From the IMG/VR virus record IMGVR_UViG_2541047845_000008: a stretch of 15,043 bases of DNA; one strand, written 5' to 3'. The notes below the pieces were generated by a model that was not told where the DNA came from, ran no database searches, and was given only the letters and a program-made list of their open reading frames with translations. Made by a program: the position numbers and the translations under genes. The DNA comes from a virus. Its lineage: Duplodnaviria > Heunggongvirae > Uroviricota > Caudoviricetes. Numbering within the stretch: the stretch's first letter is position 1; each line of letters starts with the position of its first letter. Below are positions 1 through 15,043 of this stretch, in pieces.

Positions 1-165
1 ATGGCAAAGCCGATCATCACGCTCAATGGCCTAAAAATCGTCATTATGTTGGGAATGCTGGTCATTATTCTCTGCGGTATCCGTTTTGCCGCCGAGATCA
101 TCGTGCCGTTTATTCTCGCATTATTTATTGCTGTTATATATAACTTATTTCACTTAACACATTGA
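1..165 (+). pseudogene. tqsA: Truncated 5' fragment of an AI-2E family transporter gene (TqsA/YdgG-like), 54 codons, interrupted by the element
   Basis: Frame-1 ORF from ATG at 1 to TGA at 163-165 (below the ORF-track size cutoff). Translation [46 protein letters not shown] is a hydrophobic N-terminal membrane segment that I recall as the start of E. coli TqsA. The reading frame then runs into YNLFHLTH-stop in AT-rich sequence from about nt 136-141. Identification is from memory, not a search. Confidence 0.5.
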
Positions 166-564
166 TTTAATTAAATAATTTGCACCACAAAAAGTGCCAA
201 AAATCGCAAAATGACTACACCAGTAACTACACCGTTCGGTGCACTGTATGAAACAACGTGGAACAAATAGACACAAGAAATATACAGGCAGATCATCTTT
301 CCAGGGGGAAGCGCACCAATTCATGAGGGGCGTTGCTGTCGATATGGGGATCTCCACCTACCTGGATTTTTTTCCGGTTAAACGTTAATCAGGCTGGTGG
401 GTTTTACCTGTTCTGTAGGAGTGGTCATTATGACCATCCCTTATATCGTCCGAATGCCGGACGAAGGCACACATCAACCGTAACGAAAATCGTTATGGTT
501 GCCTTGATGGTCTGCGTGGTCATTATGACCATTCAGCCAATGACCTTAATCAGAATTTTTCGCT

Positions 565-588
565 AAAAAATGACGTTGGTCACGTCAT
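565..588 (-). terminator. Putative rho-independent terminator ending the long leftward operon
   Basis: Palindrome TGACG-TTGGTCA-CGTCA at about 571-587, flanked on the plus strand by an A6 run (565-570) that reads as a U-tract on the minus strand. It lies about 70 nt downstream of the last operon gene (stop at 659). Stem is short, so confidence is modest. Confidence 0.35.
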
Positions 589-658
589 CCGGAAAGCACA
601 AAATCACGTCAATTTTTAATGGATGGTTAAACCGTCTTTATCTCGATGTCCGTACGTA

Positions 659-940
659 TTACGTACGCAGTCGTTCCGGCTTCTTCCAGTGGTACGTTAT
701 TTTCTCCTTCTCCCGATACATCTCCACGCGGCGACGGTAGGCCAGCAACTCAAGAACTCTGGTTCGTATGTTGCGCATATCCACGCCATTAAGTTCTATA
801 CCATCACGGCGCATCACCTCAGCAACAACACGCGCATAGTTTTCGGCTGTCACGCTGTCCGGCTGCGTGGCCTGTTCGTCAGCCTGCTGGCTGATTCCGG
901 CAACGCGGCGGATTAATCCCGTTATTTCGGCTTCTGTCAT
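659..940 (-). CDS. Hypothetical protein (93 aa), last gene of the packaging operon
   Basis: ATG at 940 preceded by a GAGGT Shine-Dalgarno; starts 14 nt after the TerL stop. No family recognised. Confidence 0.55.
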   Translation of the reverse strand: MTEAEITGLIRRVAGISQQADEQATQPDSVTAENYARVVAEVMRRDGIELNGVDMRNIRTRVLELLAYRRRVEMYREKEKITYHWKKPERLRT

Positions 941-953
941 GCTGCTGACCTCA

Positions 954-2615: not shown

Positions 2616-2955
2616 GCTCGTCCTCTTCTTCTGTTTCCGGTGGATTTTTACGGCGGCTTATCGGGTCAAAACCGAGCAAGGAGGCCATTTTTATCATCAC
2701 TCTTTCAGCGTCGGATTTTGCGCTTAATGCGGGGTTTCTGCTCTCGCCGCCCTGACTGTTAACAATGCTGAACCCGCGCGCCGCAAGGTCTGCGACGGCT
2801 TTCCGGTAAATGGAGTAGTTGACACAATACAGTTCCAGATTGCTCCAGTCGGCGGGGGTCAGGTCTCCCCGTTCCGCAAGCTGCCGCGATTTTTCCCGCC
2901 ACTGCTTCACGGCGATGTCATCCAGGTAGGCGGGGGCTTTCGGTGGTCTTGCCAT
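2599..2955 (-). CDS. Phage terminase small subunit (P27-family-like)
   Basis: 118 aa, MARPPKAP... N-terminus and acidic C-terminal tail; positioned immediately upstream of and overlapping TerL, downstream of HNH and the putative cos region. Confidence 0.8.
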   Translation of the reverse strand: MARPPKAPAYLDDIAVKQWREKSRQLAERGDLTPADWSNLELYCVNYSIYRKAVADLAARGFSIVNSQGGESRNPALSAKSDAERVMIKMASLLGFDPISRRKNPPETEEEDELDRLE

Positions 2956-3243
2956 GCTTATTTTTCGTCAGATTATTTTTCAAAAAATTCCCGTGCATAA
3001 AAATTTGAGGAGGCGTTCGGTGTCCGGCAGGGACGGTTTCGTCCTGAAAACCACCCCCACCCCCTCTGACGGCCTCACCAGCGATTGCGAAAACATTCCA
3101 TGACCTCGCGGTCACGGTCGGTTAATCGCTTCGCTGTGGTGCGTTCTGTGCGCCCTGTCCTGTTGGCTTTGTGCCCTGTCTCCTGTGTCTTCCATGCGTC
3201 ATGCTGCCTTATCAGTCCACGAATCAGCCTGTTTTGTTCCTGT
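2956..3243. other. Putative cos / terminase recognition region
   Basis: The only sizeable non-coding gap (about 290 bp) inside the packaging module, between HNH and TerS, where HNH-dependent cos phages of the HK97 type place cos. Contains palindrome GGACG-GTTT-CGTCC (about 3031-3044), a C-rich tract CCACCCCCACCCCC (about 3052-3065), and two near-identical pyrimidine-rich direct repeats CTGTGCGCCCTGTCC / TGTGCCCTGTCTCC (about 3146-3185). Confidence 0.35.
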
Positions 3244-3684
3244 TCAGTCATCATCGCCATACATCCAGTCGTTACGGTGTGCCGCCCGTTCTTCCTGCTC
3301 GCGATACATGCCCGCTTTACGGTTTGCTTTCGTGGCGGGATCTTCCCGCGTCGTCTTACGGTTGTGGCACGTCTGGCACAATGCCTGGTGATTCCACTCA
3401 GGCCAGAAGAGAACATCACCGCCACCATTGATGGGGATAATGTGATCCACCACAAAGGCTGGCGTATAAATACCCTCAGCCAGACAACGCACACATAACG
3501 GATTTTTTTTCAGGTACATGGCGCGGTATTTGTCCCACTGTCGGGAATACCCACGTGCGCGGCGGTGTCCCCGTCTGGCATCCTCTGCACGCCATGCAGC
3601 CCGCCTGTGCTCTTCACACTTGCCGGACTTCACGCGCTTATTACAGCCCGGCTCAGTGCATCGCCTTAATGGTTGCCACGGCAT
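3244..3684 (-). CDS. HNH endonuclease (terminase-associated)
   Basis: 146 aa with paired cysteine clusters (CTEPGCNKR..KC and LCVRC ... CQTCHNRK) and HNH-like motif VDHIIPINGGG ... WNHQALCQTCHN. Start codon overlaps the stop of the upstream connector gene. Confidence 0.9.
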   Translation of the reverse strand: MPWQPLRRCTEPGCNKRVKSGKCEEHRRAAWRAEDARRGHRRARGYSRQWDKYRAMYLKKNPLCVRCLAEGIYTPAFVVDHIIPINGGGDVLFWPEWNHQALCQTCHNRKTTREDPATKANRKAGMYREQEERAAHRNDWMYGDDD

Positions 3685-3980
3685 CAGTACACCCCCACAT
3701 CACGATAAACCGACCAGAGCATCCCTACAGCCAGCGGGATTTCTTTTGTGTCTGCATCCCCGACCGTGGCCCTGTATTCGTACAGTTGCGACACGTACAT
3801 CATGCAGCCAATCTTTATGGCTGGCGTGAACTCCAGCCCGTCATCAAAGCGCCTGCCGATGTGTTTCTGGCACACCTCAAGCGCGGCGGCGATGTATCCG
3901 CTGATTAACTGGTCTTCCTCATTGCCATCAATGCGGCAATGGAGTTTCACTTCTTCCAGGGTGATTAATTCTGCTGTCAT
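3684..3980 (-). CDS. Phage gp6-like head-tail connector protein
   Basis: 98 aa; N-terminus MTAELITLEEVKLHCRIDGNEEDQLISGYIAAA matches the characteristic LITLEE-K-HLRID...D-LI-.YI-AA pattern of gp6-like connector proteins. Overlaps neighbours at both ends. Confidence 0.75.
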   Translation of the reverse strand: MTAELITLEEVKLHCRIDGNEEDQLISGYIAAALEVCQKHIGRRFDDGLEFTPAIKIGCMMYVSQLYEYRATVGDADTKEIPLAVGMLWSVYRDVGVY

Positions 3981-4315
3981 CGTGGCGCACCTGTTTTACA
4001 AAGAATTTCCAGACGAGTCCTTTTACCGTCGGGAACGGGGGGGCCAACAATATCAAGCTCATTGCCGGAATAAGCCCCCGTGAGTACCCGTATCCGGCTG
4101 GATGCCGTAACATCCCCACGAAAACGGATCCAGACTCTTACGGTTGCCTGTGCCGTTTCTGCACCTGCGGTCATGCGTTCCCGTCCGCTGATCCCTTTCA
4201 CCTCCGCCCATACGGTGGCAACATCCTCCCATGTGCTTTTCATTGCACCGGAAGGGAGGCGGGAAAGTTTCGCGCTCATGATGACAATGCGATCCCTCAT
4301 GCTCCCCGCTCTCAT
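3977..4315 (-). CDS. Phage head closure / head-tail adaptor protein
   Basis: 112 aa; size, position after the portal gene and the motif VWAEVKGISGRE...TVRVWIRFRGDV resemble head-tail joining proteins. ATG at 4315 overlaps the portal stop. Confidence 0.7.
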   Translation of the reverse strand: MRAGSMRDRIVIMSAKLSRLPSGAMKSTWEDVATVWAEVKGISGRERMTAGAETAQATVRVWIRFRGDVTASSRIRVLTGAYSGNELDIVGPPVPDGKRTRLEILCKTGAPR

Positions 4316-5526
4316 GATTTGCCCTCTTTATCGTCCTTTACTTCGATCTCCTGTTTCCAGGCCTGGCTGAACTCATCGCCACCATCACGCGGCGATAATC
4401 CCTCACGTTCGCGGGCTTCGTTCGGGCACATAACGCCGGACTTGATGCCGCGTTCATAGGTGGCAAAGCGTTCGCCAGGTGTGGCCCGTAACAGGTCCGC
4501 GCTGTCAAACTCCACCTGATACCGGATACCAGGTACAGGCGAGGCCACCAGCAAAGCATTTTTTATCTGCTGCTCAAAGTTCGCCAGCCACGGGCGCATC
4601 GTCATGGTCAGAAACGCGCGGCTTGCCTCGCTGAAATTGCTGTAGGTGCTGTTGCTGTATTCCTGCAGAAAAATCGGCGAGACGTTGAACATTCGGGCGA
4701 TGTCTTCAATGGTGAAGCGACGGGAGGCCAGCCATTCAGCATCCTGGTTACTCATGCCAAGCTGCTGATAGCTCATACCCCCTTCAAGAATGGGCGTTTT
4801 TCCGGCGTTTCTGGCTCCTTTGTAGCGTTCCAGTGCGGCTAATGCCTGTTTGCCCTTCACGCCGTCCAGCCATTCGCCTGACGTGATAACCCCTGCTGCC
4901 ATCATGCCATCACGCATCACGCTCGCGCCGTGGCGCTGTTGGGCCAGCCCAAGCCCCAGCGATTCGCGGCAGATGGTCACAGGTGAGCGCCCCATAAAGC
5001 CGTCATCCGTGGAGTAACGAAGGTGGAGAACCTCCCACGGTAAATAGTTGCGGGTGTTTCCGCTGTAAGCGTCAGTGATGCGGTAACGCCAGTTATGTTC
5101 CCCTGTCTGCTCAACATTCACCGACTGCGGCGGGTAAGGGTGCAAAGCCACCGGAAAACCATCACGCCCCCACTGAATCACCGCATAAGCATTACCGTTT
5201 AACAGGCAGTGGCGGACCATCATTCGCTTAAACTGATAGGGCGTCTGCCACGCGTTCGGGCGCTCGTTGAGGATATGATCGACCGGATGAGAATCAAGCC
5301 ACTCGCGGGCCTCCTTCCCCTTCTCATTGCGTACCAGGTACAGGTAGCATGGCATAGTAGCCACCGCCTCAGAGATGACCGTGACGGCGTTCATGACGGC
5401 GGGGAGTGATTCCGCTGTCCCCGATGATACGTACTCACCCGCCCCCGTGTTCGATGTGCCAGCCAGCGCCATAAATTCATCCAGCGTAAGGCTGCGATGC
5501 TCTTGTTTTCGTCTGAAAGGCCACAT
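4312..5526 (-). CDS. Phage portal protein (HK97 family-like)
   Basis: 404 aa; length, position adjacent to the prohead protease gene and conserved portal-like core; acidic C-terminus. Confidence 0.85.
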   Translation of the reverse strand: MWPFRRKQEHRSLTLDEFMALAGTSNTGAGEYVSSGTAESLPAVMNAVTVISEAVATMPCYLYLVRNEKGKEAREWLDSHPVDHILNERPNAWQTPYQFKRMMVRHCLLNGNAYAVIQWGRDGFPVALHPYPPQSVNVEQTGEHNWRYRITDAYSGNTRNYLPWEVLHLRYSTDDGFMGRSPVTICRESLGLGLAQQRHGASVMRDGMMAAGVITSGEWLDGVKGKQALAALERYKGARNAGKTPILEGGMSYQQLGMSNQDAEWLASRRFTIEDIARMFNVSPIFLQEYSNSTYSNFSEASRAFLTMTMRPWLANFEQQIKNALLVASPVPGIRYQVEFDSADLLRATPGERFATYERGIKSGVMCPNEAREREGLSPRDGGDEFSQAWKQEIEVKDDKEGKS

Positions 5527-5527
5527 A

Positions 5528-6103
5528 TCACACCCCCGCTAAATCCGCCCACCAGCGGCGATTATCCGCGCGTGGCATTTTTTCGGGGTGCTGCTCATAC
5601 AGGGAACGGCGGGCCAGATCCACGCCGGAATCAGGGTAAGCCGGTACGGATGTAACGGTAATTTCGTACAGTTCCGCCACCAGCACGGTGCGCACGCATG
5701 GATCTGTTGTGGTATCCCATACATCCTTACGGGAACGAAAGCCAAAGCTCATGCCGGATATATCACCACGTTTAACCAGTTCGATAACGTCCCGCCCTGT
5801 GCTGGTATCCGGTGGGGTCAGTTCAAAGCGTAACCCTGTGTCGTCCTCTTCCAGTTTCAGCGTGCCGGAACGGGTGCGCCCCAGTAACATGCTGTGGTCA
5901 TGCTCATACAGGCCACGAACGTCATTACCCGCCGCCAGCCACTCACTGAACGCCCCCCGCTGGAATTTTTCGTAAAACTCACCCCATAGCAGATCAGAAA
6001 GGTTATTCCAGCGAACAACGTAACCCGTCAGCGTACTGGCTCCGCTGGTGGTGATTTCTGATGACCGGATTTCCATGCTCTTTTTCATATTTTTTTCACC
6101 CAT
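5528..6103 (-). CDS. Prohead maturation protease (HK97 family-like)
   Basis: 191 aa; lies between the major capsid and portal genes. Alternative ATG starts at 6088 (GGTGA Shine-Dalgarno) or 6076 are possible. Confidence 0.8.
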   Translation of the reverse strand: MGEKNMKKSMEIRSSEITTSGASTLTGYVVRWNNLSDLLWGEFYEKFQRGAFSEWLAAGNDVRGLYEHDHSMLLGRTRSGTLKLEEDDTGLRFELTPPDTSTGRDVIELVKRGDISGMSFGFRSRKDVWDTTTDPCVRTVLVAELYEITVTSVPAYPDSGVDLARRSLYEQHPEKMPRADNRRWWADLAGV

Positions 6104-6111
6104 AAAACACC

Positions 6112-6135
6112 AAAGGGGCTTTTTAGCCCCTTTTT
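6112..6135 (-). terminator. Hairpin with flanking T-runs between capsid and protease genes (attenuator/terminator)
   Basis: Perfect 6-bp stem GGGGCT / AGCCCC with 4-nt loop at about 6115-6130, with T-rich flanks on both strands, immediately 3' of the capsid stop at 6139. Confidence 0.45.
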
Positions 6136-6138
6136 CTG

Positions 6139-7308
6139 TTAATCGCCGTTTTTCATCTCGAGGACTTTTATCGCGCGGGAGTCAACAACCCCGCCGCCGA
6201 TGTATTTATCCGTGTGTACCTTGTAGAAGCCCGGCTCTGTAATGTTGTCCGGTCGGGTACGGATCCCCGTTTCATGGTCAACGATGAAATAACCGCGCTT
6301 AAAGTCACCGACAGCCAGCGGCGTTTTGCCTTTGCCGATGTCCGGCATACTTTCCAGGTAATAAACAGGACGGCCCAGCAATGTGTCAGGTGCGCCCTCT
6401 TTGAGGCTGTCACGCCATACGTAATCACCGCTCTGGTTTTTCAGCTTCTGCAATGCTGCCGCAGTGTTCGAGTTCATCACCCACACGGCGTTCTTACGGT
6501 ATTTCGCTTTCAGCTTGTAGAGGATGTCGATCAGTTCGTCCGCTGTAATGGCGTCGGTTGTTGTAACCATTTTTTCAATGGTGCCAAAGGCGCGGGCTTT
6601 GTCGTTGTTGGTATCACGGGTGTAATTCAGGAAACCCTTCGGCTTGCCAGTACCGTCACCATTTACAAAATCATCTTCTTCGGTCGTGGCGAACGTGTCG
6701 GCGATTTCAGACGATAACCAGCCCAGCACATCCACTTCTGAAAAATCCAGGATTTCCTGCGTGGTTTTCGGGTAGGCATAGATCGGGTTAAGTTTGATGC
6801 TTACGCGCTCAACTTTCGGGGTTTCTGTTTCGGTTCGCTTGTTGCCCTCAGTGCCACGCCCCACCGTTGCGCCACCTGTGGAAACCAGTTTCTGGTATTC
6901 GTTTGATTTCGCCGTTTTCACCGTCGCAATCATTCGCATGACGCTTTCATCACTCAGTAACCGCATAACCTCGCGATCAAGCTCAGGGATAACGGTATAA
7001 CCACCGTCCTTGCCGCCGTTGGTGGTGGTGGATAATGAGCGAACGTCACCCGTTACGATGTAGTTGCGAAGTTCTGCGGGGTCAGTGGTCTGGCTGGCTT
7101 TACCTGGCTTGCTGCGCTCTTCGTCGGCAACGGCTTCAAGGCGGGAAATGTCTTTATCGAGGGATTCAGCTTTAGCGCGTAATTCGTCAAATTTTGCGCC
7201 CTCGGCGTCGTTAAGGCTGCGGTTTTCTTTTTCCGCGTTCTCCAGCATGTCGCGCATCTGATTTTTGATGGCGGTTTTCTGCTGGCGCAATTCGATAATT
7301 CTCGGCAT
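6139..7308 (-). CDS. Major capsid protein, HK97 fold
   Basis: N-terminal coiled-coil delta-domain-like region (MPRIIELRQQKTAIKNQMRDMLENAEKENRSL...) followed by a capsid core. The ORF track extends to 7353 on a TTG; ATG at 7308 is the more likely start (389 aa). Confidence 0.9.
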   Translation of the reverse strand: MPRIIELRQQKTAIKNQMRDMLENAEKENRSLNDAEGAKFDELRAKAESLDKDISRLEAVADEERSKPGKASQTTDPAELRNYIVTGDVRSLSTTTNGGKDGGYTVIPELDREVMRLLSDESVMRMIATVKTAKSNEYQKLVSTGGATVGRGTEGNKRTETETPKVERVSIKLNPIYAYPKTTQEILDFSEVDVLGWLSSEIADTFATTEEDDFVNGDGTGKPKGFLNYTRDTNNDKARAFGTIEKMVTTTDAITADELIDILYKLKAKYRKNAVWVMNSNTAAALQKLKNQSGDYVWRDSLKEGAPDTLLGRPVYYLESMPDIGKGKTPLAVGDFKRGYFIVDHETGIRTRPDNITEPGFYKVHTDKYIGGGVVDSRAIKVLEMKNGD

Positions 7309-7558
7309 AAAAAAAAGTCCTGATGCAAAGAGGAAAACACCAGGACGCGGCAAGACTCACGGTACGAGAACAAAAAGAAATGCACACCGATGCAGGCTTC
7401 CCGCCTGTTAACGCTGATGAGATTAACAGGCGGGAAAATGGTCCCAGCGTCCTGGCAACAGTGGCGAGAATAACCACGGTTCGGGCCTGATAAAATAAGC
7501 CAGCCATGCCGCTGAACAACCACGAACAACCACGCACAAATAATTTACAAAAGCTGAC

Positions 7559-7584
7559 AAAAAAAGCCCTGGTTAAACCTGGGC
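7559..7584 (-). terminator. Rho-independent terminator after the replication/regulation segment
   Basis: Stem-loop GCCCTGG-TTAAA-CCTGGGC (one mismatch) followed on the minus strand by U7 (plus-strand A7 at 7559-7565), directly 3' of the gene ending at 7592. Confidence 0.5.
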
Positions 7585-7591
7585 TGGGCCA

Positions 7592-7852
7592 TTAATTAAC
7601 GTCTTCCGGTGGTACTGATTGCACTGTGCGGGGCTTCACCTTTTCCAGATATGCGATGAGCGCATCAATCTGTTCAGGACCAGCCGCCAGAATTTCACCG
7701 GAAAGCGTGCTGCGTAAAAAACCATGATGATCAACCCAGAATATCGCCCCCGCCGCCAGGTGCTGGCGATAACGCTCCGTTGTCGTGTGGGCCGGATGTT
7801 CAAGGCCGAATAATTCGCGGTGTCGTTTAATTTCCTCTGTGGTTACTGGCAT
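7592..7852 (-). CDS. Hypothetical protein (86 aa)
   Basis: ATG at 7852 with AGGGGG Shine-Dalgarno; overlaps the 3' end of the upstream PerC-like gene by 10 nt. No family recognised. Confidence 0.55.
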   Translation of the reverse strand: MPVTTEEIKRHRELFGLEHPAHTTTERYRQHLAAGAIFWVDHHGFLRSTLSGEILAAGPEQIDALIAYLEKVKPRTVQSVPPEDVN

Positions 7853-8100
7853 GTTTCCCCCTTTAATTTATCTAATCCCATTTCAGCATAAACACGATCA
7901 GCGGCTTTTTTAATATCGCTGAAATTGTCCGGCCCGAGTGCTGGCCTTGTCGATTTTCTGCAACATTCCAGCCGTCGCATCGTGATGTGCTCCCGTTCCT
8001 TGTCTGTCTCCACCAGTAGCATGACTTCACCCCATCGCGCCGACGCTCTCCGGTAAAAGCCTTTCGCCTCGAGTTCTTCCGCTATGCGGTCATGTACCAT
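7843..8100 (-). CDS. PerC-like transcriptional activator (85 aa)
   Basis: From ATG at 8100 (GAGGGTGA Shine-Dalgarno; the track's longer ORF starts on a GTG inside ssb). The motif MVHDRIAEELEAKGFYRRASARWGEVM ... C..C ... DNFSD ... MGL matches my recollection of PerC/Pch-family small activators. Not search-verified. Confidence 0.5.
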   Translation of the reverse strand: MVHDRIAEELEAKGFYRRASARWGEVMLLVETDKEREHITMRRLECCRKSTRPALGPDNFSDIKKAADRVYAEMGLDKLKGETCQ

Positions 8101-8110
8101 CGTCACCCTC

Positions 8111-8521
8111 TCAGAACGGAATATCATCACCGTAAGGGTCATCGCCTCCCGCTGGTGGCTGATTACCCTGTGTGCCTGTGGTCTTGCGTCGGCTCCCACC
8201 AGGTCGCGCCGTTCTGGCACTGATTACGCTGTCTGCAATAACCTGCCAGCCCTGCCGCGTTTCCCCGTTCTGTCCGGTCCACTGGCTGACCTGCATCGTG
8301 CCGGATACGCTGGCAACGTCGCCTTTTTGATGTTTAGCCAGGAAGTCGGCCTGCTTACCAAATGCCATCACCGATAGCCATAACGTAGCCTGCCCATCCT
8401 GCGCCTGACTACATGGCAACGATACCGCCATACGTGCCAGCGTCATTGGTGTGCCCTTGCTGGTCTGTTTTACCTGCGGGTCGTCCACCAGCCGCCCGTA
8501 AGCTGCTATCTGTGCTGTCAT
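8111..8521 (-). CDS. ssb: Single-stranded DNA-binding protein
   Basis: 136 aa; OB-fold-like core (AAYGRLVDDPQV ... W..V.AFGKQADF ... KGD.V.V.G ... W) and the hallmark acidic C-terminal tip ...GGDDPYGDDIPF. Confidence 0.85.
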   Translation of the reverse strand: MTAQIAAYGRLVDDPQVKQTSKGTPMTLARMAVSLPCSQAQDGQATLWLSVMAFGKQADFLAKHQKGDVASVSGTMQVSQWTGQNGETRQGWQVIADSVISARTARPGGSRRKTTGTQGNQPPAGGDDPYGDDIPF

Positions 8522-8775
8522 GATTCCACCTCTCCGGTTTTAACGTTGATGGTTGTTACCTGTTCCGCTTCGGCAATCTCCCGTTCTGTCAGCGTGGCAA
8601 AGTTTGCCGCCGCCGTGGTCATGAATGCGCTTATCAGGTCGGGATGTGCTTTCGCGTATCCTTCCCCCGTGTTGCGGTCGATGATTTTTATCGCCACTCT
8701 CAGCCAGTGCTCTGTAAGGTCAATGGCGCGGTTATGCTGCTTCTTCTGATTATTAAGTTTTCCTGATGTGCGCAT
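8518..8775 (-). CDS. Hypothetical protein (85 aa)
   Basis: ATG at 8775; stop overlaps the ssb start. Sits between the origin iterons and ssb. No family recognised. Confidence 0.5.
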   Translation of the reverse strand: MRTSGKLNNQKKQHNRAIDLTEHWLRVAIKIIDRNTGEGYAKAHPDLISAFMTTAAANFATLTEREIAEAEQVTTINVKTGEVES

Positions 8776-8823
8776 TTTTATTTTTACCCCCTCGTTTAAA
8801 AAGTTTTGAGTTGTGCCTCCCCT

Positions 8824-9050
8824 TGTCTACCTTATCTACCTTACTGGCTCTCATGCCAGTAATGGCGCGGCTTTCAGCGGGGTAGAGTGCTTTTATCCAC
8901 TATCTACCCCGTATCTACCTCCCTGTCTGATTCAGGTAAAATCAGGTAGAGAGGGTAGATAGTAGGTAGACAGTGAAAAAAGGCTGTCTACCTAAGTTAA
9001 TATACTGAATTAAATGTATTTTTCTTTACTCAGGTAGACAGGGTAGACAG
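8824..9050. repeat. Iteron array and AT-rich segment: putative replication origin
   Basis: Eleven copies of an octamer with core TCTACC / GGTAGA in a non-coding stretch just 3' of the primase gene. Forward copies (TGTCTACC or TATCTACC) at about 8824, 8833, 8901, 8912, 8985; inverted copies (GGTAGA-CA/TA/GA/GT) at about 8881, 8945, 8954, 8965, 9033, 9043. An AT-rich spacer (about 8994-9030) is flanked by inverted iterons. Confidence 0.7.
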
Positions 9051-9063
9051 CCATTGCAAAAAA

Positions 9064-10818
9064 TTATAAAAACGCGTCGCAATCGTCTGTTGTTATTGCG
9101 TTAGTCTGCGTTACTCCCTTAACTTTCCGCGTAATATATTCATGTCCGTAAACTTTCGCGGCTGGCTTCATAGCCTTGCCAAAGTCATTTACGTTTAGCG
9201 GTTTGCTCCTGCCTGCGTATGCCATAAACGCCAGATAGACGCGGTAAAGGCTGTTCCTGGTCGTGTACTTCACTGAATCGCCACCGCCCCCCATCATCAG
9301 GCCGCGCGCTTCCTCCAGAAAATTCAGGAACTGGCAAAACTCAATAACCGGATCCGTCTGTTGCTTTATTGCCAGTGCTTCATCACCGTCACGCTGTTCC
9401 AGTAGTAAAGCCCGTGCCTTCTCAGGGTCGGTAAAGTTCGCCAGCAATCGGCGGATAATGACAGGGATTTCAGCCGCAATCTTTTCCGGTAGCTCCCTGT
9501 CTTTTTCGGCCTCACTGACGATATTGTCGAAACGGAAAATTACGCGACGACGTGACACACCTCCGGCCCGTTCGGTGAATATCATCGGATTGTTATTGGT
9601 TGCCAGCACCACCGCCCTGATTACCGCCGTAAAACGCTTTTCATATTTCGGGTTAATTTCCACGGGGTCGCCGCCCGTGATTTTCTTGATGCCCGTTCCT
9701 TCGCCTGTATATTTCGGCTGGTCAGCCAGGACGATAAGACGACTCCCGACAACCTGCGCACGTCCACCAGCATCATCAAGCGATGTCATTTCAGCGCTTA
9801 CCGTGTTCTGTTTCCCTGCCAGAAGGCTGGCTATGTGCGTGAATGTACTTTTACCGCTCCCGCCATCTCCGGTGGCCTCAATAAACATCTGCCAGTCGTA
9901 CCGGTTCGCCATAATCATGTACAGCGCGGCACATATACGCATCATCTTGCGCGGGTCTTTTCCGGCTGCGTGCTCAAGCCATTTATGAAAGTTTGGCGCG
10001 TTATCGCGGATGTTCTCCCCTGGTGCTGGTGGCGTGTACTCAATGCCGTTGTGCGTGGTGATCCAGTTCTCCGGCGTGTGCGGGGAAAATTCCCCCGTTT
10101 TCAGGTCAAGCGCACCATTGGCGAACGGCAGCAAATCGCCGGACGGCTCGCCCATTGGTTCGGCAATAACTTTTAACGCTTCCACGGCGTTATTGATTAC
10201 GCGCTTGCTGAAAGTGGCCCTGTGCTCTGAATAGATCGCCACCATTTCGCGGCTAAGTTCCATTGTGCTGACCGGACACCATACCCCGCCGCGCCATACG
10301 TGAACGATTTCACTTTCAGGATGTACGCAAACGCCATCAAAGCGATCGGCAAGCAGCTGCGCGCGCTCACTGTCCGCCATCTGCGAAAGTTGCGCCTTTT
10401 GCTTTACCGGAAGCTCAATGACCAGACCATCAGAAAGATTCTGGCGCTCACGGGCCAGATATTCGCGCCAGTTCTCCACCTTCTGACCGTGCATACCCTC
10501 AGGATAAAAATTTGCATCCTGTACGCCTGCCGCCGCCAGCTTCTGGCCAATCGCCTTTATCATTACTGGCGCAAGATATCCGGCCCTGAATATGCGCACG
10601 GATTTTCTGCCTTCCGGCACAATTTGCAGCTTATCCAGTTCTGATAACTGCTGCTCCCCAAGCCACACAGGAGGCTCATTATCTCCGGCCATACGCGCAT
10701 CATGTTCCTGCCATTGTTTCGCGTGTGCCCAGGCATCACTACCCGCAAAAATAATGACTTCTGTTCCTTTGTGTTTTATGCCGCGTGACTGCTGTTTTAC
10801 GTTCGGTGCCAGTTTCAT
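9064..10818 (-). CDS. DNA primase/replicase, P4 alpha-like family
   Basis: 584 aa with Walker A GDGGSGKST and surrounding NTPase motifs; architecture resembles satellite primase-helicases. Its ATG overlaps the stop of the upstream small gene (ATGA). Confidence 0.85.
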   Translation of the reverse strand: MKLAPNVKQQSRGIKHKGTEVIIFAGSDAWAHAKQWQEHDARMAGDNEPPVWLGEQQLSELDKLQIVPEGRKSVRIFRAGYLAPVMIKAIGQKLAAAGVQDANFYPEGMHGQKVENWREYLARERQNLSDGLVIELPVKQKAQLSQMADSERAQLLADRFDGVCVHPESEIVHVWRGGVWCPVSTMELSREMVAIYSEHRATFSKRVINNAVEALKVIAEPMGEPSGDLLPFANGALDLKTGEFSPHTPENWITTHNGIEYTPPAPGENIRDNAPNFHKWLEHAAGKDPRKMMRICAALYMIMANRYDWQMFIEATGDGGSGKSTFTHIASLLAGKQNTVSAEMTSLDDAGGRAQVVGSRLIVLADQPKYTGEGTGIKKITGGDPVEINPKYEKRFTAVIRAVVLATNNNPMIFTERAGGVSRRRVIFRFDNIVSEAEKDRELPEKIAAEIPVIIRRLLANFTDPEKARALLLEQRDGDEALAIKQQTDPVIEFCQFLNFLEEARGLMMGGGGDSVKYTTRNSLYRVYLAFMAYAGRSKPLNVNDFGKAMKPAAKVYGHEYITRKVKGVTQTNAITTDDCDAFL

Positions 10819-11114
10819 TTTTTACCCCTGAATCCTTTAATCATGGTTTTCATCTTCTGAATATTGGCGCGTGCTTTCTCCCTGCTGGTGGGCACGTTAC
10901 GCGGTACGGCCTGCACAAGAGAAAAATCACGGTCGAACTGATAAACAGGCATCACGCAATCATATTCGTAGCCTTCACGACGGTAGGTTACGCGCCGTTC
11001 CTCCACGCCCTTAATCATTACCGTGCCGCCGTACTTATCGCGGTAAATATCACCGCGCATGAATTTAGTGCGAGTTTTGCCACTGGCAGTTAAGCCAGAA
11101 TATTTAAGTTTCAT
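10815..11114 (-). CDS. Hypothetical basic protein (99 aa)
   Basis: ATG at 11114; translationally coupled to the primase gene. No family recognised. Confidence 0.55.
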   Translation of the reverse strand: MKLKYSGLTASGKTRTKFMRGDIYRDKYGGTVMIKGVEERRVTYRREGYEYDCVMPVYQFDRDFSLVQAVPRNVPTSREKARANIQKMKTMIKGFRGKK

Positions 11115-11119
11115 TATTT

Positions 11120-11353
11120 TTATTCTCCGGTGTGGGGCGCTTTATACTGGTCGTGTAATGTCTCTATTTCCTGCAACTCATTTATTACAGGCTCAAGAAG
11201 CGTTATTAATGCCGTGACAATCCTTGATTTCTGTTTATCACGTTCATTATCTCCAAGCGTTTCAAGACATATGCGCAATATTTCCAACATATTTTCACTG
11301 TGAGAAAGTGCAAGAAATGCGCGGTCTATTGTTTCGTGGTAAATATCACGCAT
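11120..11353 (-). CDS. Hypothetical acidic protein (77 aa)
   Basis: ATG at 11353 with GGGGA Shine-Dalgarno, immediately after the stop of the upstream gene. No family recognised. Confidence 0.5.
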   Translation of the reverse strand: MRDIYHETIDRAFLALSHSENMLEILRICLETLGDNERDKQKSRIVTALITLLEPVINELQEIETLHDQYKAPHTGE

Positions 11354-11354
11354 A

Positions 11355-11576
11355 TTAATCCCCGTCCGTCGTTTTTCTTAAAATAACCTCTGTCACGAAA
11401 TCAGCATAATCGGCGGCGATATTCAGTACATCAAGCACCGTTGATTTATATTCTCTCGTGGAAAGTAAGAAAAAAGCCGCTCTAATAAGTTCTGGCATTG
11501 ACGAAAGCGCATCAGCCGCATCATCAGGAACGCCGGAAAATTCCTGTTTCAGGGAATTAAAACGATTATCACGCAT
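11355..11576 (-). CDS. Hypothetical acidic protein (73 aa)
   Basis: ATG at 11576 with GGGGGG Shine-Dalgarno; overlaps the upstream gene by 8 nt. No family recognised. Confidence 0.5.
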   Translation of the reverse strand: MRDNRFNSLKQEFSGVPDDAADALSSMPELIRAAFFLLSTREYKSTVLDVLNIAADYADFVTEVILRKTTDGD

Positions 11577-11934
11577 GTTTACCCCCCTGAATGACCTGAT
11601 AACCGCAACTGGTCAGCAACTCGATAAATTCCGGCAGTGTGCCGAAACAGCAATCATCACGCAGCCGTTCGCAGGATACCTCGACGCCGTTTTCGTAGTG
11701 ACTCACCATACATCCGGTAAAATGCAGATCATCATCGTGATGGCTCGTTGACGGCTTAATCAGTCGCGCACGTTCCGCCAGTTCCAGCAATGCTTCAACG
11801 CTTCCGGCAATTGCACCATCCGGCAGGTGATAATTACGCACTATGCGCCCGTTCTCCACATTGACCAGCAACTGCCCGGTAAATTTCTCGTCAAACTGAA
11901 TGCTGTTAAGGTCAGAAATTGACAGGTTATGCAT
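11569..11934 (-). CDS. Hypothetical protein (122 aa)
   Basis: Preferred start is the ATG at 11934, preceded by a perfect AGGAGG Shine-Dalgarno at 6-nt spacing (the track ORF extends to 11952). Cys/His-containing; no family recognised. Confidence 0.55.
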   Translation of the reverse strand: MHNLSISDLNSIQFDEKFTGQLLVNVENGRIVRNYHLPDGAIAGSVEALLELAERARLIKPSTSHHDDDLHFTGCMVSHYENGVEVSCERLRDDCCFGTLPEFIELLTSCGYQVIQGGKHA

Positions 11935-12151
11935 GGTGCACCTCCTGCACATCAGCCATGATAATTTTTCCGGCCTTATCCAGTGCCTGATCGGCTTTTA
12001 GCTGCACAAATGCTAAATAATGGAAGATGCATTCTGATTCTCTGGCTGCGTGTTTATGCGCCCTGTCAGCAATAACAGAAATATCAATCAGCGCATGCAT
12101 TAGCGTTATGATGGCTTCGGCGGCTGCGTCCGGACGGGTGTTATTGCACAT
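11927..12151 (-). CDS. Hypothetical protein (74 aa)
   Basis: ATG with GGAGG Shine-Dalgarno; overlaps the downstream gene by 8 nt. No family recognised. Confidence 0.5.
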   Translation of the reverse strand: MCNNTRPDAAAEAIITLMHALIDISVIADRAHKHAARESECIFHYLAFVQLKADQALDKAGKIIMADVQEVHHA

Positions 12152-12347
12152 GGCACACCTCCTGACGAATACGGGCAGCGAATACCATCACGCAGCCAGC
12201 CGGGGATTGCTGGCGTGCTTCCTGTTCGCTGGTGGCCTCAATGGTAATCACGCGCGGTTGTGCCGTGCTCAGGGCGATAAAACGCCAGATGTATTTATTC
12301 AGGTTGTGCGAATCCCGCCCTTGCGGGTGTGTGGTATGATTTAACAT
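12141..12347 (-). CDS. Hypothetical protein (68 aa), first gene of the leftward operon
   Basis: Only the 3' 68 codons of the 354-aa track ORF are plausible: ATG at 12347 with GAGGT Shine-Dalgarno, just downstream of the predicted leftward promoter. The rest of that ORF runs antisense through the regulatory region. Confidence 0.4.
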   Translation of the reverse strand: MLNHTTHPQGRDSHNLNKYIWRFIALSTAQPRVITIEATSEQEARQQSPAGCVMVFAARIRQEVCHVQ

Positions 12348-12443
12348 AGCTACCTCGATACTTTCGCTATCGTTGGTGGTTAGAAGCCCCGTTACTGCTC
12401 CTACAGTGCGGGGTTTCGTCGTTTCTACACCTTGCCTTAATAA

Positions 12444-12497
12444 GGTGTTGAACACCAATTTAAATCGAGGTGTTAAACACGTCAAGTGTTGAACACT
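12444..12497. promoter_or_regulatory. Three palindromic operator-like sites in the divergent control region
   Basis: GGTGTT-G-AACACC (12444-12456, perfect), GGTGTT-A-AACAC (12469-12480) and AGTGTT-G-AACACT (12485-12497, perfect); centre-to-centre spacing about 25 and 16 bp, between the leftward operon and the rightward small regulator gene. Confidence 0.6.
12457..12485 (-). promoter_or_regulatory. Candidate sigma70 promoter of the leftward operon
   Basis: On the minus strand: TTGACG (-35, plus 12485-12480), 16-17 nt spacer, TTAAAT/TAAATT (-10, plus about 12463-12457). Operator sites overlap the -35, spacer and start region. A rightward candidate (TTGAAC at 12489-12494, 17 nt, CATACT) lies back to back. 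Confidence 0.4.
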
Positions 12498-12546
12498 TAT
12501 TTTTTTTCCTGCATACTGCATTTGTTTTTTATGAAGGGTGCTCAAC

Positions 12547-12726
12547 ATGGCGACAAAAGCAGTAAACGCAAAATCACAAACAGTTGCGGCAAGGGTTCCA
12601 CATGAAGTTATGAACAATGTTGAGGCGGTAAAAATGCCCGGCGAAAGTACAGGGCAGTTTGTTACAGCTGCATTAAAGCGGGAAGTTGAATACCGCCAGC
12701 GTCGCAAGGCCAAAGAATCAGAATAA
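12547..12726 (+). CDS. Small ribbon-helix-helix-like DNA-binding protein (putative island regulator)
   Basis: ATG at 12547 with AAGGG Shine-Dalgarno (the track starts on GTG at 12538). The pattern beta-strand (QTVAARVP), helix (HEVMNNVEAV), turn (KMPGES), helix (TGQFVTAALKREVEY), then a basic tail fits the RHH (Arc/CopG-like) fold. Encoded next to the operator array. Confidence 0.5.
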   Translation: MATKAVNAKSQTVAARVPHEVMNNVEAVKMPGESTGQFVTAALKREVEYRQRRKAKESE

Positions 12727-12783
12727 TCACTATCAGCGCCGTGGCGTGAGGTACTCCGGCGCATTGCTTTACAGGTCAGTACT

Positions 12784-12993
12784 ATGAGCAAAAAACACCG
12801 ATCAGCAGATGAGATTTTTGCAGAACAACGAAGATTGCTTTTGCAAAGTATCATTTCACGCCAGCAAGAGAAGGCGCGAGCTAAACAAATGCCACCAAAT
12901 ACAGAACCAGCGCCTACAAGATTTGCGCTTGATGACTTTCTCGATAAACACCCCAGGGTAATGAAAGCAAACAAAAACCGCCCACCAGGCTGA
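12784..12993 (+). CDS. Hypothetical protein (69 aa)
   Basis: ORF downstream of the RHH gene on the same strand, followed by a strong terminator. No family recognised. Confidence 0.4.
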   Translation: MSKKHRSADEIFAEQRRLLLQSIISRQQEKARAKQMPPNTEPAPTRFALDDFLDKHPRVMKANKNRPPG

Positions 12994-13088
12994 TCACATT
13001 GCCCACCAGCCTGATAGCGGCTATCATCCCCGTGCTTATGTTTGAGATCACACACACAAACGGCGCAGCGGGTTATCTGTTCAGAAAG

Positions 13089-13116
13089 GCGGCTCCATTT
13101 CGGGGCCGCTTTTTTT
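13089..13116 (+). terminator. Rho-independent terminator of the rightward regulatory transcript
   Basis: GC-rich stem GCGGCTCC / GGGGCCGC (8 bp including one G-U) with loop ATTTC, followed by T7 (13110-13116). Confidence 0.6.
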
Positions 13117-13262
13117 ATTCCTGAAAAACCCCAATTTTGTTGTTTTTCAGTTTCACCAGGGCGAACGAATCCCCGCCCACGTTCTGGCGTATATTCAATC
13201 TTCATGGTTATAGCTCTGTGTTCAGATGATTGATGTGTGGCGGCTGCGTGCCGCCAGCGTGA

Positions 13263-13451
13263 TTAATGAACTGCCTTGCAGCTATCCTTCCAGGCCAGAA
13301 CCTCGGATAAAGACCAGCCAACGGAACGACCGCCAAGTTTACGACGTGATGGGAATTGTCCGGCCTTTTCCAGGCGGTAGCGACACGTACGGCTAAGGCC
13401 GGTTAGTTTTTCGCATTCTTTTTCACGTATAAACCGATCAGTGCTTAACAC
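13263..13451 (-). CDS. alpA: AlpA-family transcriptional regulator / excisionase-like protein
   Basis: 62 aa; motif EKLTGLSRTCRYRLEKAGQFPSRRKLGGRSVGWSLSEVLAW is the characteristic AlpA helix-turn-helix signature. GTG start with AAGGGGG Shine-Dalgarno; directly downstream of int. Confidence 0.85.
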   Translation of the reverse strand: MLSTDRFIREKECEKLTGLSRTCRYRLEKAGQFPSRRKLGGRSVGWSLSEVLAWKDSCKAVH

Positions 13452-13825
13452 TATTGCCCCCTTTCGTTTCTTAAAGAGTTATTTCGTGTTCTATTGCGTT
13501 GGGATGTGTCTGATTGTGTCAGGATGATTCAGAGTTGGCAAATGTTGAGGCCGTATGGTTTACAGAAAGAGGAATAATCAGGATAAAATCATTTAATTTC
13601 ATGTTAATACAAAGGCATAAAATATTGTTTCATGCCTTTTTTCTCGCTATTTAAAGAGTGATTCGCTAGTGTATAAAAAACCAGCAACACATTAAAAATC
13701 AGCTACTTATAAATCCGTACACTTTTTCGCCTCTTGTTCGTAGTTGTTCCGCATTGTTGCTCATTGTTGCACGTTGTATCTGTTCGCATATCCAGTATGC
13801 GCATACTGAAAAAACACGAAAAAAA

Positions 13826-15043
13826 TTATTTTCTTCTGGCTACTGGTAGCGTGGTTACGTTTTCATGTGTTCCCGCCAGTATCCCTAACCGCTCCGTCCA
13901 CATATCCAGCGCATTGCGTTTAGCATCCAGATAACGGGAATGATTATAAACTCGCTGCATTCCTGGCATCTGGTGGCCTGTAAGCTGCTCCACGACATGC
14001 GGATCAACGCCTAAATCGTTCAGCATGGTTGTAAAGGTGCGCCGGATGTCATGCAGTGACCAGTGAGGGTGATTAAGCCTCCTGTGCACTAATCTGCCGT
14101 ACTGCGATACGCTGGCCTCCTGTTTCACTTCCCCCAGCAATAAGCCCGTGTGCCTGTTCTGCTCCACCAGCTGCGTGACGAACGGCAGGATCGCTTCCGG
14201 TATGGGCCGGAATATTGCGACCTTCGTTTTGCTGTGCTCCTTCGGAACGGTCCATAGCATTTCCGTAAAATCCCACTCCCCGATCTCCGATAACCTCAGT
14301 TCTACCGTTCTGGCTCCGAAGACAATCAGGAGGCGGATTAACGCGACGTAGTAAGGGGAAAATATTTTTTTGTCCAGTGCCTGCAATAATTCGCCAAGTT
14401 CTTTGTTACTTAAGACACGTTCGCTTATATCCGGTTTTTTCCCAACGTCCGCCACGTTCAGATCGTCCAGAACGTTGCTGATTGCATAGCGCCGCCTACG
14501 GCAAAACTTAAGCGCCTGTTTGCACGCCTGTAGCACGAATCCGGCAGTAACAGGCGTTCGCTTTGCCACCTGGTCAAAACAGGCCAGCCAGTGCCGTAGC
14601 TCGCATTTATCCAGCGGCATAGCACCAATCTGCTGTATTACGTGATTATTAAGTCGCCTTTTCAGGGCGATATAATCCACGCGGTTTTCCTTTACGTAAT
14701 ACTCAAGCCAGTAGGTGAGCGCATCGCCAACCGTTACCGGCTTTAACGCTTCCTGTACGGTGTAATTAAGCTCATGACGTGGATTTTTCCCCTCTGCCAG
14801 CCATGCGCGACACTGGGCGGCTTTTTCCCTGGCTGATTTCAGGCTCAGATCAGGATAATTTCCCAGCTTAATGCGTTCCGGTGGTGCCCCCCTTCCCGTT
14901 CCGGCCCTGTAAGTGAAATACCAGGTCAATTTCCCTGATGTTAAATATTTCACGCTCAGGTTTCCGCCATCACTATAAAACGTGTTTTTCTCCGCTGGCT
15001 TACCATGAAGTTTCCTTAGCAAGGTATCGCTCAGTTTGTTCAT
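13826..15043 (-). CDS. int: Tyrosine recombinase, P4-type integrase
   Basis: 405 aa; N-terminal arm-binding-like region, core-binding domain, and catalytic C-terminus with R ... HDIRRT ... and YNHSRYLD (catalytic Tyr region). Its ATG is the last three bases of the window, so its upstream region and the adjacent att site are outside the window. Confidence 0.95.
   Translation of the reverse strand: MNKLSDTLLRKLHGKPAEKNTFYSDGGNLSVKYLTSGKLTWYFTYRAGTGRGAPPERIKLGNYPDLSLKSAREKAAQCRAWLAEGKNPRHELNYTVQEALKPVTVGDALTYWLEYYVKENRVDYIALKRRLNNHVIQQIGAMPLDKCELRHWLACFDQVAKRTPVTAGFVLQACKQALKFCRRRRYAISNVLDDLNVADVGKKPDISERVLSNKELGELLQALDKKIFSPYYVALIRLLIVFGARTVELRLSEIGEWDFTEMLWTVPKEHSKTKVAIFRPIPEAILPFVTQLVEQNRHTGLLLGEVKQEASVSQYGRLVHRRLNHPHWSLHDIRRTFTTMLNDLGVDPHVVEQLTGHQMPGMQRVYNHSRYLDAKRNALDMWTERLGILAGTHENVTTLPVARRK

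Follow-up and report, generated by a model that had tools for sequence, protein, structure and literature searches.

A very probable capsid-forming phage-inducible chromosomal island of the EcCIEDL933 type in the tqsA gene of Escherichia coli

The stretch of viral DNA considered here (15,043 nucleotides, IMG/VR record IMGVR_UViG_2541047845_000008; "the window" throughout) raises a simple question: is a set of integrase, replication, head and DNA-packaging genes without a tail the complete genome of a satellite that builds its own capsids, or does it belong to something else? A sequence-only reading, made without database searches, had taken positions 136-15043 for a tail-less satellite with its own capsid and packaging genes, of the kind called capsid-forming PICIs (cf-PICIs; PICI, phage-inducible chromosomal island), a family described in 2022-2023 (Alqurainy et al.). 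This reading is borne out, since the gene content, gene order, size of ~15.1 kb and absence of tail and lysis genes agree with the published criteria, and the element is a close kin of EcCIEDL933. We are highly confident that the window holds an intact ~15.1-kb cf-PICI of the EcCIEDL933 type, integrated through its own tyrosine integrase at a 9-bp core in the E. coli tqsA gene. Judged from its sequence, it is a mosaic relative of the prototype EcCIEDL933; the kind is known and common, and the element itself is undescribed but ordinary. By analogy with the prototype, it would encode its own small head and packaging machine and would take its tails from a helper phage.

Boundaries and class of the element

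The window starts at the ATG of tqsA, and its positions 1-137 (plus strand) are the 5' part of this AI-2 (autoinducer-2) transporter gene, a host flank that lies outside the element, is interrupted by the insertion and is annotated as a tqsA fragment in relatives; complete E. coli genomes with relatives show the same element dividing tqsA. The int-distal junction is marked by the 9-bp att core TGCTGTTAT at 129-137, one copy of a direct repeat, and the previously proposed start at 136 was therefore essentially right. The right boundary does lie outside the window, as had been said, at a distance of only ~190 nucleotides from its end. These missing nucleotides are provided by contig DABEPX010000005.1 (L005), which was retrieved by an exact look-up of the Rep protein and matches the window at 15,041 of 15,043 positions (99.987%). 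Extending the window rightward into this contig, as the sequence-only reading had advised, located the second copy of the 9-mer TGCTGTTAT at window-equivalent positions 15231-15239. Outside the repeats, L005 has host genes only, with mdtJ beyond one copy and pntB and the remainder of tqsA beyond the other, and fusing the flanks through the att core restores the TqsA reading frame. Of 5426 complete E. coli genomes, 5174 (95%) have the rebuilt 98-nucleotide empty site intact and 248 have it split, and the cf-PICI of AST216 (L001) has the same junctions as the window. From the att repeats and the directly adjoining host genes, the element is therefore precisely bounded, ~15.1 kb long and tail-less; the tail, lysis and repressor genes that might have stood just outside, turning it into a full prophage, are not there, and host genes adjoin it instead. 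Nothing was found in the literature on tqsA as a PICI att site, the six att sites of Alqurainy et al. having been left uncompared.

The element also carries the means for such an insertion. The tyrosine integrase gene int (13826-15043, minus strand; PF13356 (Arm-DNA-bind_3) and PF00589) has its annotated GTG start 12 nucleotides past the window end, as read in L005, and its product shows 97.8% identity to the integrase from another element in tqsA and 92.8% to the EcCIEDL933 integrase. An arm-type repeat pair, GACTACACC-N3-AACTACACC (213-233, plus strand), and a matching pair next to int (window-equivalent 15082-15102) are probable arm-binding sites of this integrase, and EcCIEDL933 likewise has arm-type repeats (GACTACACC) inside both ends. 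In the orphan 3' part of tqsA (L005 4680-5566), the frame of the rebuilt gene shifts after codon ~150, leaving two open reading frames (ORFs) of 149 and 169 residues, which suggests that the host gene decayed once the element had interrupted it.

A cf-PICI is expected to measure 10-18 kb, to be bounded by att sites, to have integrase, regulation and replication modules, and to be free of lytic genes and of a tail module (He et al. 2025 preprint); SatelliteFinder works with 11 core components for cf-PICIs and treats tails and holins as forbidden (PMC10085698). The element is ~15.1 kb long with the att core at both ends (the right end read in L005), and the integrase, the AlpA regulation and the pri-rep/origin replication modules are all present. 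Its eight head and packaging components are full length and contiguous. All 11 SatelliteFinder core components and neither forbidden one were found, which corresponds to "Type A" of that program, the components having been matched by hand rather than by a SatelliteFinder run. Profile searches recovered all that had been listed from the letters alone, namely int, alpA, a small regulator with operators, pri-rep, an iteron origin, ssb and the head and packaging set. The claimed absence of tail, lysis and CI/Cro genes also holds: no window ORF matches the tail, holin/lysin or CI/Cro families in Pfam, PHROG and NCBIfam scans, and the leftover non-coding gaps in the window are too small to hide such genes. 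The description of "one co-oriented element" is right for most genes and needs correcting for two, since the minus strand holds all real genes except the regulator at 12547-12726 and its 69-residue partner at 12784-12993, both on the plus strand.

Could the element instead be a defective HK97-like prophage, a decaying remnant from which the tail, lysis and immunity modules have been deleted? Its head and packaging genes do belong to HK97-type phage families. Like HK97 and the helper phage HK106, the window encodes an HK97-fold capsid with a delta domain, an S78 protease, an HK97-type portal and gp6-like and head-closure proteins; it shares HNH-dependent cos packaging with the HK97-like siphophages, and phages of E. 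coli and Klebsiella have homologues of its head-closure protein that are up to 64% identical. In contrast to HK97-like phages, it has no tail, lysis or CI/Cro genes and only one third of their genome size, and the tail, lysis cassette and CI/Cro immunity that an intact temperate HK97-like prophage would carry within its att sites are not found in the 15.1-kb element. A remnant is difficult to reconcile with precise att boundaries that have host genes immediately outside, or with ORFs that are all full length; the capsid and terminase ORFs, for which disruption had been raised as a possibility, are intact, and all head and packaging ORFs have the lengths of their counterparts in at least one of three reference elements (EcCIEDL933 and the cf-PICIs of IAI39 and AST216). 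The int-alpA-pri-rep-iteron module is, moreover, of PICI type, with pri-rep and origin identical in classical PICIs, the exact proteins are present on hundreds of contigs, and in EcCIEDL933, experiments show the same architecture to be that of a satellite. Among 50,697 phage records, none shares more than 13% of the element's DNA and none does so at more than 78% identity, so that no parent phage emerged; this limited sharing fits the very low gene-repertoire relatedness to phages published for cf-PICIs (Alqurainy et al.). A prophage remnant is thus a very improbable explanation of the window, which is far better read as a cf-PICI.

The element might also be P4-like or a classical PICI, remodelling the capsids of its helper rather than making its own. 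The window has in common with P4 a P4-family primase C-terminal/helicase region, a homologue of the P4 alpha origin-binding domain and a tyrosine integrase with a P4-type arm-binding domain, and it contains an Icd-like gene. P4 depends on its helper for virion parts. It takes the helper capsid protein and the helper terminase and carries the helper cos (Alqurainy et al.), whereas the window has its own head and terminase, only the C-terminal/helicase and origin-binding parts match P4, and Pfam, PHROG and NCBIfam scans returned no P4 capsid-size or helper-control family. Classical PICIs of the EcCICFT073 group (L006-L009) have an identical pri-rep, an identical or near-identical origin, shared alpA, DUF4222, ssb, perC and orf93 genes, and similar integrases. 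Between perC and orf93 (~13200-16400), these islands carry a lambda-E-like capsid homologue (PF03864), a D-like decoration protein (PF02924) and three small genes, without portal, protease, head-closure, connector, HNH, TerS or TerL. From this comparison, module exchange between PICIs and cf-PICIs is clear. A classical PICI relies on the helper capsid and large terminase; the window has its own portal, adaptor, connector and TerL, and it is the portal, head-closure protein, connector and TerL that part cf-PICIs from PICIs in SatelliteFinder. The probability that the element is P4-like or a classical PICI is therefore close to nil, and the cf-PICI assignment is kept below.

Kinship with EcCIEDL933 and the proposed life cycle

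Comparison with described cf-PICIs, which the sequence-only reading had called for, gave both the agreement with the criteria of He et al. 2025 and a per-gene match to EcCIEDL933. The prototype was located in the E. coli O157:H7 EDL933 chromosome (NZ_CP008957.1, ~1.680-1.696 Mb; L004) and compared gene by gene. From int to the terminal orf93, the genes of the two elements stand in the same order, and the sizes are similar (15.4 kb for EcCIEDL933 and 15.1 kb here). Protein identities are 100% for AlpA and TerS, 98.4% for TerL, 96.5% for the portal, 96% for SSB (the single-stranded-DNA-binding protein), 95% for the protease and 93% for the integrase. They are lower for the HNH protein (84%), the small ORF after HNH (82%), the connector (74%), the capsid (68-70%) and the adaptor (51%). 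Other modules differ altogether: Rep has 584 residues with D5_N/DUF5906 in the window and 710 residues with DUF927 in EcCIEDL933; the iterons are TCTACC and TAACCCGCA, respectively; and the att sites are the tqsA core TGCTGTTAT and the roxA-phoQ intergenic core GGACATATTT. The set of small genes between alpA and rep differs as well, with a YlcI-family regulator in the window and an unannotated, non-homologous ribbon-helix-helix-like ORF in EcCIEDL933.

Comparison with two further, uncharacterised cf-PICIs shows a patchwork. In that of IAI39 (L002), which occupies the roxA-phoQ site as in EcCIEDL933, the head module from capsid to connector is 95-99.8% identical to the window. In that of AST216, which occupies the tqsA site with the same junctions, it is the half from int to ssb that is 93-100% identical, apart from the regulator. 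The window thus joins an AST216-like and an IAI39-like half, with additions of its own: orf86 is absent from both elements, and the HNH and orf61 alleles (~83%) are in neither, nor do they match the third reference element, EcCIEDL933. The YlcI regulator and its operators match IAI39, not AST216.

The functional reading of the element is built on the prototype. In EcCIEDL933, alpA is needed for helper induction and transfer, both of which are lost upon its mutation; every packaging gene is needed for transfer of the island, not for transfer of the phage; small, island-sized capsids remain when the helper capsid gene is mutated; and the helper major-tail and tape-measure genes are required (Alqurainy et al. 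2022/2023). The adaptor/connector pair determines which phage tails are compatible (He et al. 2025). The cycle outlined here consists of steps demonstrated for EcCIEDL933 and inferred for this element, except for the repressor step, which is wholly inferred. A helper phage would turn on alpA, and AlpA would activate the island and lead to its excision, after which a P4-alpha-like Rep and SSB, both encoded by the island, would replicate it from its own iteron origin. Small heads would then form from the island's own HK97-type proteins (capsid, protease, portal, head closure and gp6-like connector), and its own HNH-TerS-TerL machine would cut and package the DNA of the island at a cos site a short way upstream of terS. 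The filled heads would be infectious only once joined to the tails of a co-resident phage, with the head-closure/connector pair setting the tails that fit. The YlcI-family ribbon-helix-helix protein would repress the early icd-to-rep operon via three operators. Helper dependence, small capsids and tail theft are carried over from EcCIEDL933; AlpA induction, small capsids and the need for helper tails are expected here on the basis of identical AlpA and TerS and of a protease, portal and TerL that are 95-98% identical to those of the prototype.

Several points weigh against adopting this picture as a whole. With the capsid at 70%, the adaptor at 51%, the connector at 74% and the HNH protein at 84% identity to the prototype, helper and tail specificity are not transferable from EcCIEDL933. 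The element is known here from its genes alone, with no known helper phage; cos has been placed by where the gap lies, by its conservation and by the termini of a single database record, which are suggestive only; and the repressor role of the regulator is an extrapolation, EcCIEDL933 having no YlcI homologue and an unannotated analogue only. Published adaptor/connector identities to EcCIEDL933 are 35%/63% for KpCIDSM30104 and 40%/61% for EcCIGN02175 (He et al. 2025). The window pair, at 51%/74%, is unlike either, and the element is thus neither KpCIDSM30104 nor EcCIGN02175. This pair is distinct, and the tail donors are probably different.

The want of a known helper also allows for a true cf-PICI by descent that is immobile in its present host, be it from lack of a compatible helper or tail or from a regulatory defect. 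In its native strain, none of the 17 resident prophages induces EcCIEDL933 (He et al. 2025; Alqurainy et al.), and the later frameshift in the 3' part of tqsA in L005 fits a long residence. Yet all genes are intact, the functional prototype has the very same AlpA and TerS, and the presence of near-identical copies in many E. coli genomes and of close relatives at two att sites argues for recent mobility. Immobility is consequently improbable, if less so than a prophage remnant, and an intact cf-PICI remains the preferred reading.

Head, packaging and replication genes

All genes described in this section lie on the minus strand. The major capsid protein (6139-7308; 389 residues; PF05065, E 6e-72) has the HK97 fold with an N-terminal delta domain, its start being placed at 7308 instead of the mechanical TTG at 7353. 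It matches PDB entry 9gyi (E 9e-173), whose 385-residue chain agrees with the EcCIEDL933 capsid in length and in its alignment to the window capsid, an agreement based on those two features and not on direct sequence comparison. The overall identity of 68-70% to the EcCIEDL933 capsid corresponds to 93% in the delta domain, 63% in the mature part and 36% in the connector loop, and the five capsid residues found important for transfer by mutagenesis of EcCIEDL933 (He et al. 2025) are all conserved in the window. The gap from the capsid stop to the protease start is exactly where a strong 9-bp G+C-rich hairpin with T-runs on both strands stands (6112-6133); by partial termination or by stabilisation, this hairpin may raise capsid expression relative to the downstream genes. 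On the 5' side of the capsid gene, there are a perfect 12-bp inverted repeat with an 11-nucleotide spacer (CCCGCCTGTTAA and TTAACAGGCGGG, 7400-7434) and a 2.6-copy tandem 10-mer (GAACAACCAC, 7514-7539), both candidate control sites of the packaging operon.

The capsid gene is followed by the HK97-type prohead serine protease of family S78 (5528-6103; PF04586, E 1e-47; TIGR01543; 94.8% identical to EcCIEDL933) and the portal (4312-5526; PF04860, E 8e-92; TIGR01537; 96.5%). The head-closure or head-tail adaptor Hc1 (3977-4315; PF05521, E 1e-23; PDB 2kz4, E 1.5e-32) is 51% identical to EcCIEDL933 and 99% to IAI39, its best phage homologues reaching 64% and those of the phi467/Evi/606R7-like phages 63-64%. 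The gp6-like head-tail connector Ad1 (3684-3980; PF05135; TIGR01560; phrog_40) is similarly 74% and 99% identical to the same two elements, and a PDB sequence search with it gave no match. Downstream are the HNH endonuclease (3244-3684; PF01844, E 2e-9; 83.6% identical to EcCIEDL933), a packaging cofactor, and the 61-residue orf61 (3075-3260; phrog_3173, E 2e-29; 82% identical to the EDL933 ORF). Judged from gene order, orf61 is the probable counterpart of EcCIEDL933 gene 1792, a mutant of which shows very poor transfer (Alqurainy et al. 2022 preprint).

The DNA of cf-PICIs has cohesive cos ends (He et al. 2025), and a putative cos region is the gap from HNH and the small ORF to TerS (2956-3074). 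Positions 3041-3064 of this gap hold a conserved G-rich motif, GGGGGTGGGGGTGGTTTTCAGGAC, and EcCIEDL933, IAI39 and AST216 all have the gap in highly conserved form. Database record LR881103.1 ("Escherichia phage vB_KppS-Ant", L012), a linear cf-PICI-like genome of 16,548 bp from induced particles, starts 22 nucleotides before terS, and its end falls exactly in the shared motif GGGGTGGGGG(A/T)GGTTTTCAGGAC. Sequence features of this kind suggest that cos probably lies within 2956-3074, near the GGGGGTGGGGG motif. LR881103.1 also has a 2.3-kb gene, annotated as tape measure, directly after terL. The packaging set ends with the small terminase TerS of the P27 family (2599-2955; PF05119, E 1e-23; TIGR01558; 100% identical to EcCIEDL933) and the large terminase TerL (954-2615; PF03354 and PF20441; 98.4% identical over all 553 residues).

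After TerL comes the conserved terminal gene orf93 (659-940; phrog_1561, E 6e-56), which is 87% identical to its EcCIEDL933 counterpart and is also the last gene in the classical PICIs L006-L009. Between orf93 and the att core there remains a non-coding terminal region (138-658) with no supported ORF, for which EcCIEDL933 has an 83% identical equivalent. It contains two perfect 17-nucleotide repeats GTGGTCATTATGACCAT (421-437 and 516-532, 95 nucleotides apart), each including the palindrome TGGTCAT-T-ATGACCA; the related site in EcCIEDL933 is GGTCATAATGACC.

Two accessory genes stand on the other side of the capsid gene. One encodes a PerC-family regulator (7843-8100; PF06069, E 7e-36); PerC homologues are common PICI cargo, reported to silence expression of the LEE (locus of enterocyte effacement) or not to affect it (PMC11773190). 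The other, orf86 (7592-7852; phrog_1957, E 1e-24), sits in a variable slot, and the corresponding DNA (7564-7869) has no match in the three reference elements. A PADLOC scan of ten small ORFs detected no known defence system.

The replication protein pri-rep (9064-10818) is P4-alpha-like, with D5_N, DUF5906 and Pox_D5 families, an SF3 helicase and an origin-binding C-terminus. It had been called a P4-type primase, and this name is half right: it belongs to the P4 family, as TIGR01613 ("primase, P4 family") scores just over its cutoff and the C-terminus matches the P4 alpha origin-binding domain (PDB 1ka8), but no catalytic primase domain was found in residues 1-160. A cf-PICI-like island of Xenorhabdus (L015), with capsid and protease genes, has a full-length primase with the Zn-ribbon and Toprim domains that are missing from the window Rep. 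Just downstream of rep lies the replication origin (8825-9048), with nine (G/A)TCTACC iterons in both orientations, one group of which flanks an A+T-rich stretch. The window has ten DTCTACC sites, nine of them in this region; 2.7 are expected in the whole window, and none of 200 shuffles reached ten. Such an iteron and A+T-rich layout has been described for origins of Gram-negative PICIs (PMC6092414). The origin region is identical in every locus with the window Rep type, except that one of the five differs by a few bases, and EcCIEDL933, with the other Rep type, has 11 TAACCCGCA iterons at the same position. The iterons thus co-vary with the Rep type, and Rep and origin therefore travel as one cassette. 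That this cassette is common to PICIs and the window agrees with the left half reported to be shared by PICIs and cf-PICIs (PMC10085698; Alqurainy et al.).

The early, or replication, operon starts with a gene for an Icd-like small protein (12141-12347; NF033153, E 2e-18; phrog_6196). Four small overlapping genes follow (11927-12151, 11569-11952 or -11934, 11355-11576 and 11120-11353; PHROG 5146, 340, 24341/2512 and 2196, respectively), then the gene of a DUF4222 protein (10815-11114; PF13973, E 3e-24) and pri-rep. Beyond the origin are the conserved orf85 (8518-8775; phrog_1231, E 3e-48) and ssb (8111-8521; PF00436, E 2e-16). The Icd-like protein corresponds to the last 68 residues of a mechanical 354-residue ORF (12141-13205), the rest of which was rejected as a gene: residues 1-260 have no family match, Cys makes up 4.8% of the ORF, its substitutions show a weak third-codon-position bias, and the frame is broken in several relatives and runs antisense to the YlcI-like gene and orf69. 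Diverged versions of the frame (43-55% amino acid identity) are open in some PICIs and broken in others (L004 5170-5913; L006 7254-8678; L009 7526-8812), and gene callers and RefSeq annotate the long frame (247 residues in EDL933). The long antisense frame is probably spurious.

The small regulator, its operators and the wider meaning

Between int and the early operon, the activator of the satellite cycle, AlpA (13263-13451, minus strand; PF05930, E 5e-17), is accompanied by a small regulator of the YlcI/YnfO family (12547-12726, plus strand; 59-62 residues; NF041551, E 2e-16), predicted to adopt a ribbon-helix-helix fold. A PDB sequence search with the regulator gave chance matches only, and no functional paper on YlcI/YnfO was found in the literature. 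Three operator-like palindromes GTGTT(G/A)AACAC (12445-12496, with spacings of 25 and 16) sit between the regulator and the leftward icd-like gene and overlap a promoter-like site that points into the icd-to-rep operon. With one mismatch allowed, the pattern GTGTTRAACAC has seven matches, against 0.49 expected in the whole window, and no shuffle reached seven.

Across the six loci compared, the operator sequence varies with the YlcI allele while the positions stay fixed. The sites are GTGTAAGACAC and its complement in AST216, GGTGTGGCCCAC in L009 and L011, GGTATTCAC in L006 and AGTGTCAGCCACC in the Xenorhabdus cf-PICI; a Klebsiella island (L014), the YlcI allele of which is 81% identical to that of the window, has the same sites with the same 25/16 spacing. 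In the Klebsiella islands L013 and L014 and the Xenorhabdus island L015, too, the YlcI-like gene stands divergently between alpA and the early operon. This covariation suggests, as a tentative proposal to which we give rather less than even chances, that the YlcI-like protein may be an allele-specific ribbon-helix-helix repressor of the early icd-to-pri-rep operon, acting via the three operators in PICIs and cf-PICIs of E. coli, Klebsiella and Xenorhabdus. EcCIEDL933 has at this place an unannotated 63-residue ORF on the opposite strand (L004 5613-5804), with weak HicB/Arc (ribbon-helix-helix) matches and two AGGTGGTCACCT sites beside it, and this ORF seems to be a non-homologous ribbon-helix-helix analogue with its own palindromes.

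Other features of the control region were also inspected. The regulator partner orf69 (12784-12993, plus strand) is 100% conserved in IAI39, and its FAL(D/E)xFL motif is common to the equivalent ORFs of L006 and EcCIEDL933. The leader that runs from the operators to the start codon of the icd-like gene contains a stem-loop at 12384-12416 (AAGCCCCG ... CGGGGTTT), which has no Rfam match; the leader around it is near-identical in all compared relatives, even those with different operators. An Rfam scan of the whole window (E<=1) gave chance matches only, the "mir-3927" match being the iteron palindrome, and no C4/CI-type immunity RNA was detected by it upstream of the icd-like gene. A LexA-box search of the window returned one site, within orf74 and no better than chance, so that SOS control of the packaging operon is unsupported.

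Taken together, these results place the element in a well-populated family. SatelliteFinder detected 969 cf-PICIs, in 13% of Enterobacteriaceae genomes (PMC10085698); at least 80% of the window is present in 120 complete E. coli genomes, and its exact capsid, adaptor and HNH proteins are found on 174, 338 and 340 public contigs, respectively. As a cf-PICI, the element adds nothing conceptually, since the family is already published and catalogued. It is, however, a natural recombinant of the prototype, in which TerS and AlpA are identical while the capsid, the adaptor/connector pair, HNH, Rep and origin, and the att site differ. With TerS and AlpA shared and the other modules different, the element could be used to find out which module governs helper induction, tail choice and self-recognition of the capsid. 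The one point that goes beyond the literature consulted is the covariation of regulator and operators, a small lead on how Gram-negative PICIs are silenced. The global repressor of these islands has been called unclear (Fillol-Salom et al. 2018); if the proposal made above is true, the YlcI-like repressor would be that missing "global repressor" of Gram-negative PICIs, an immunity-like module beneath AlpA activation.

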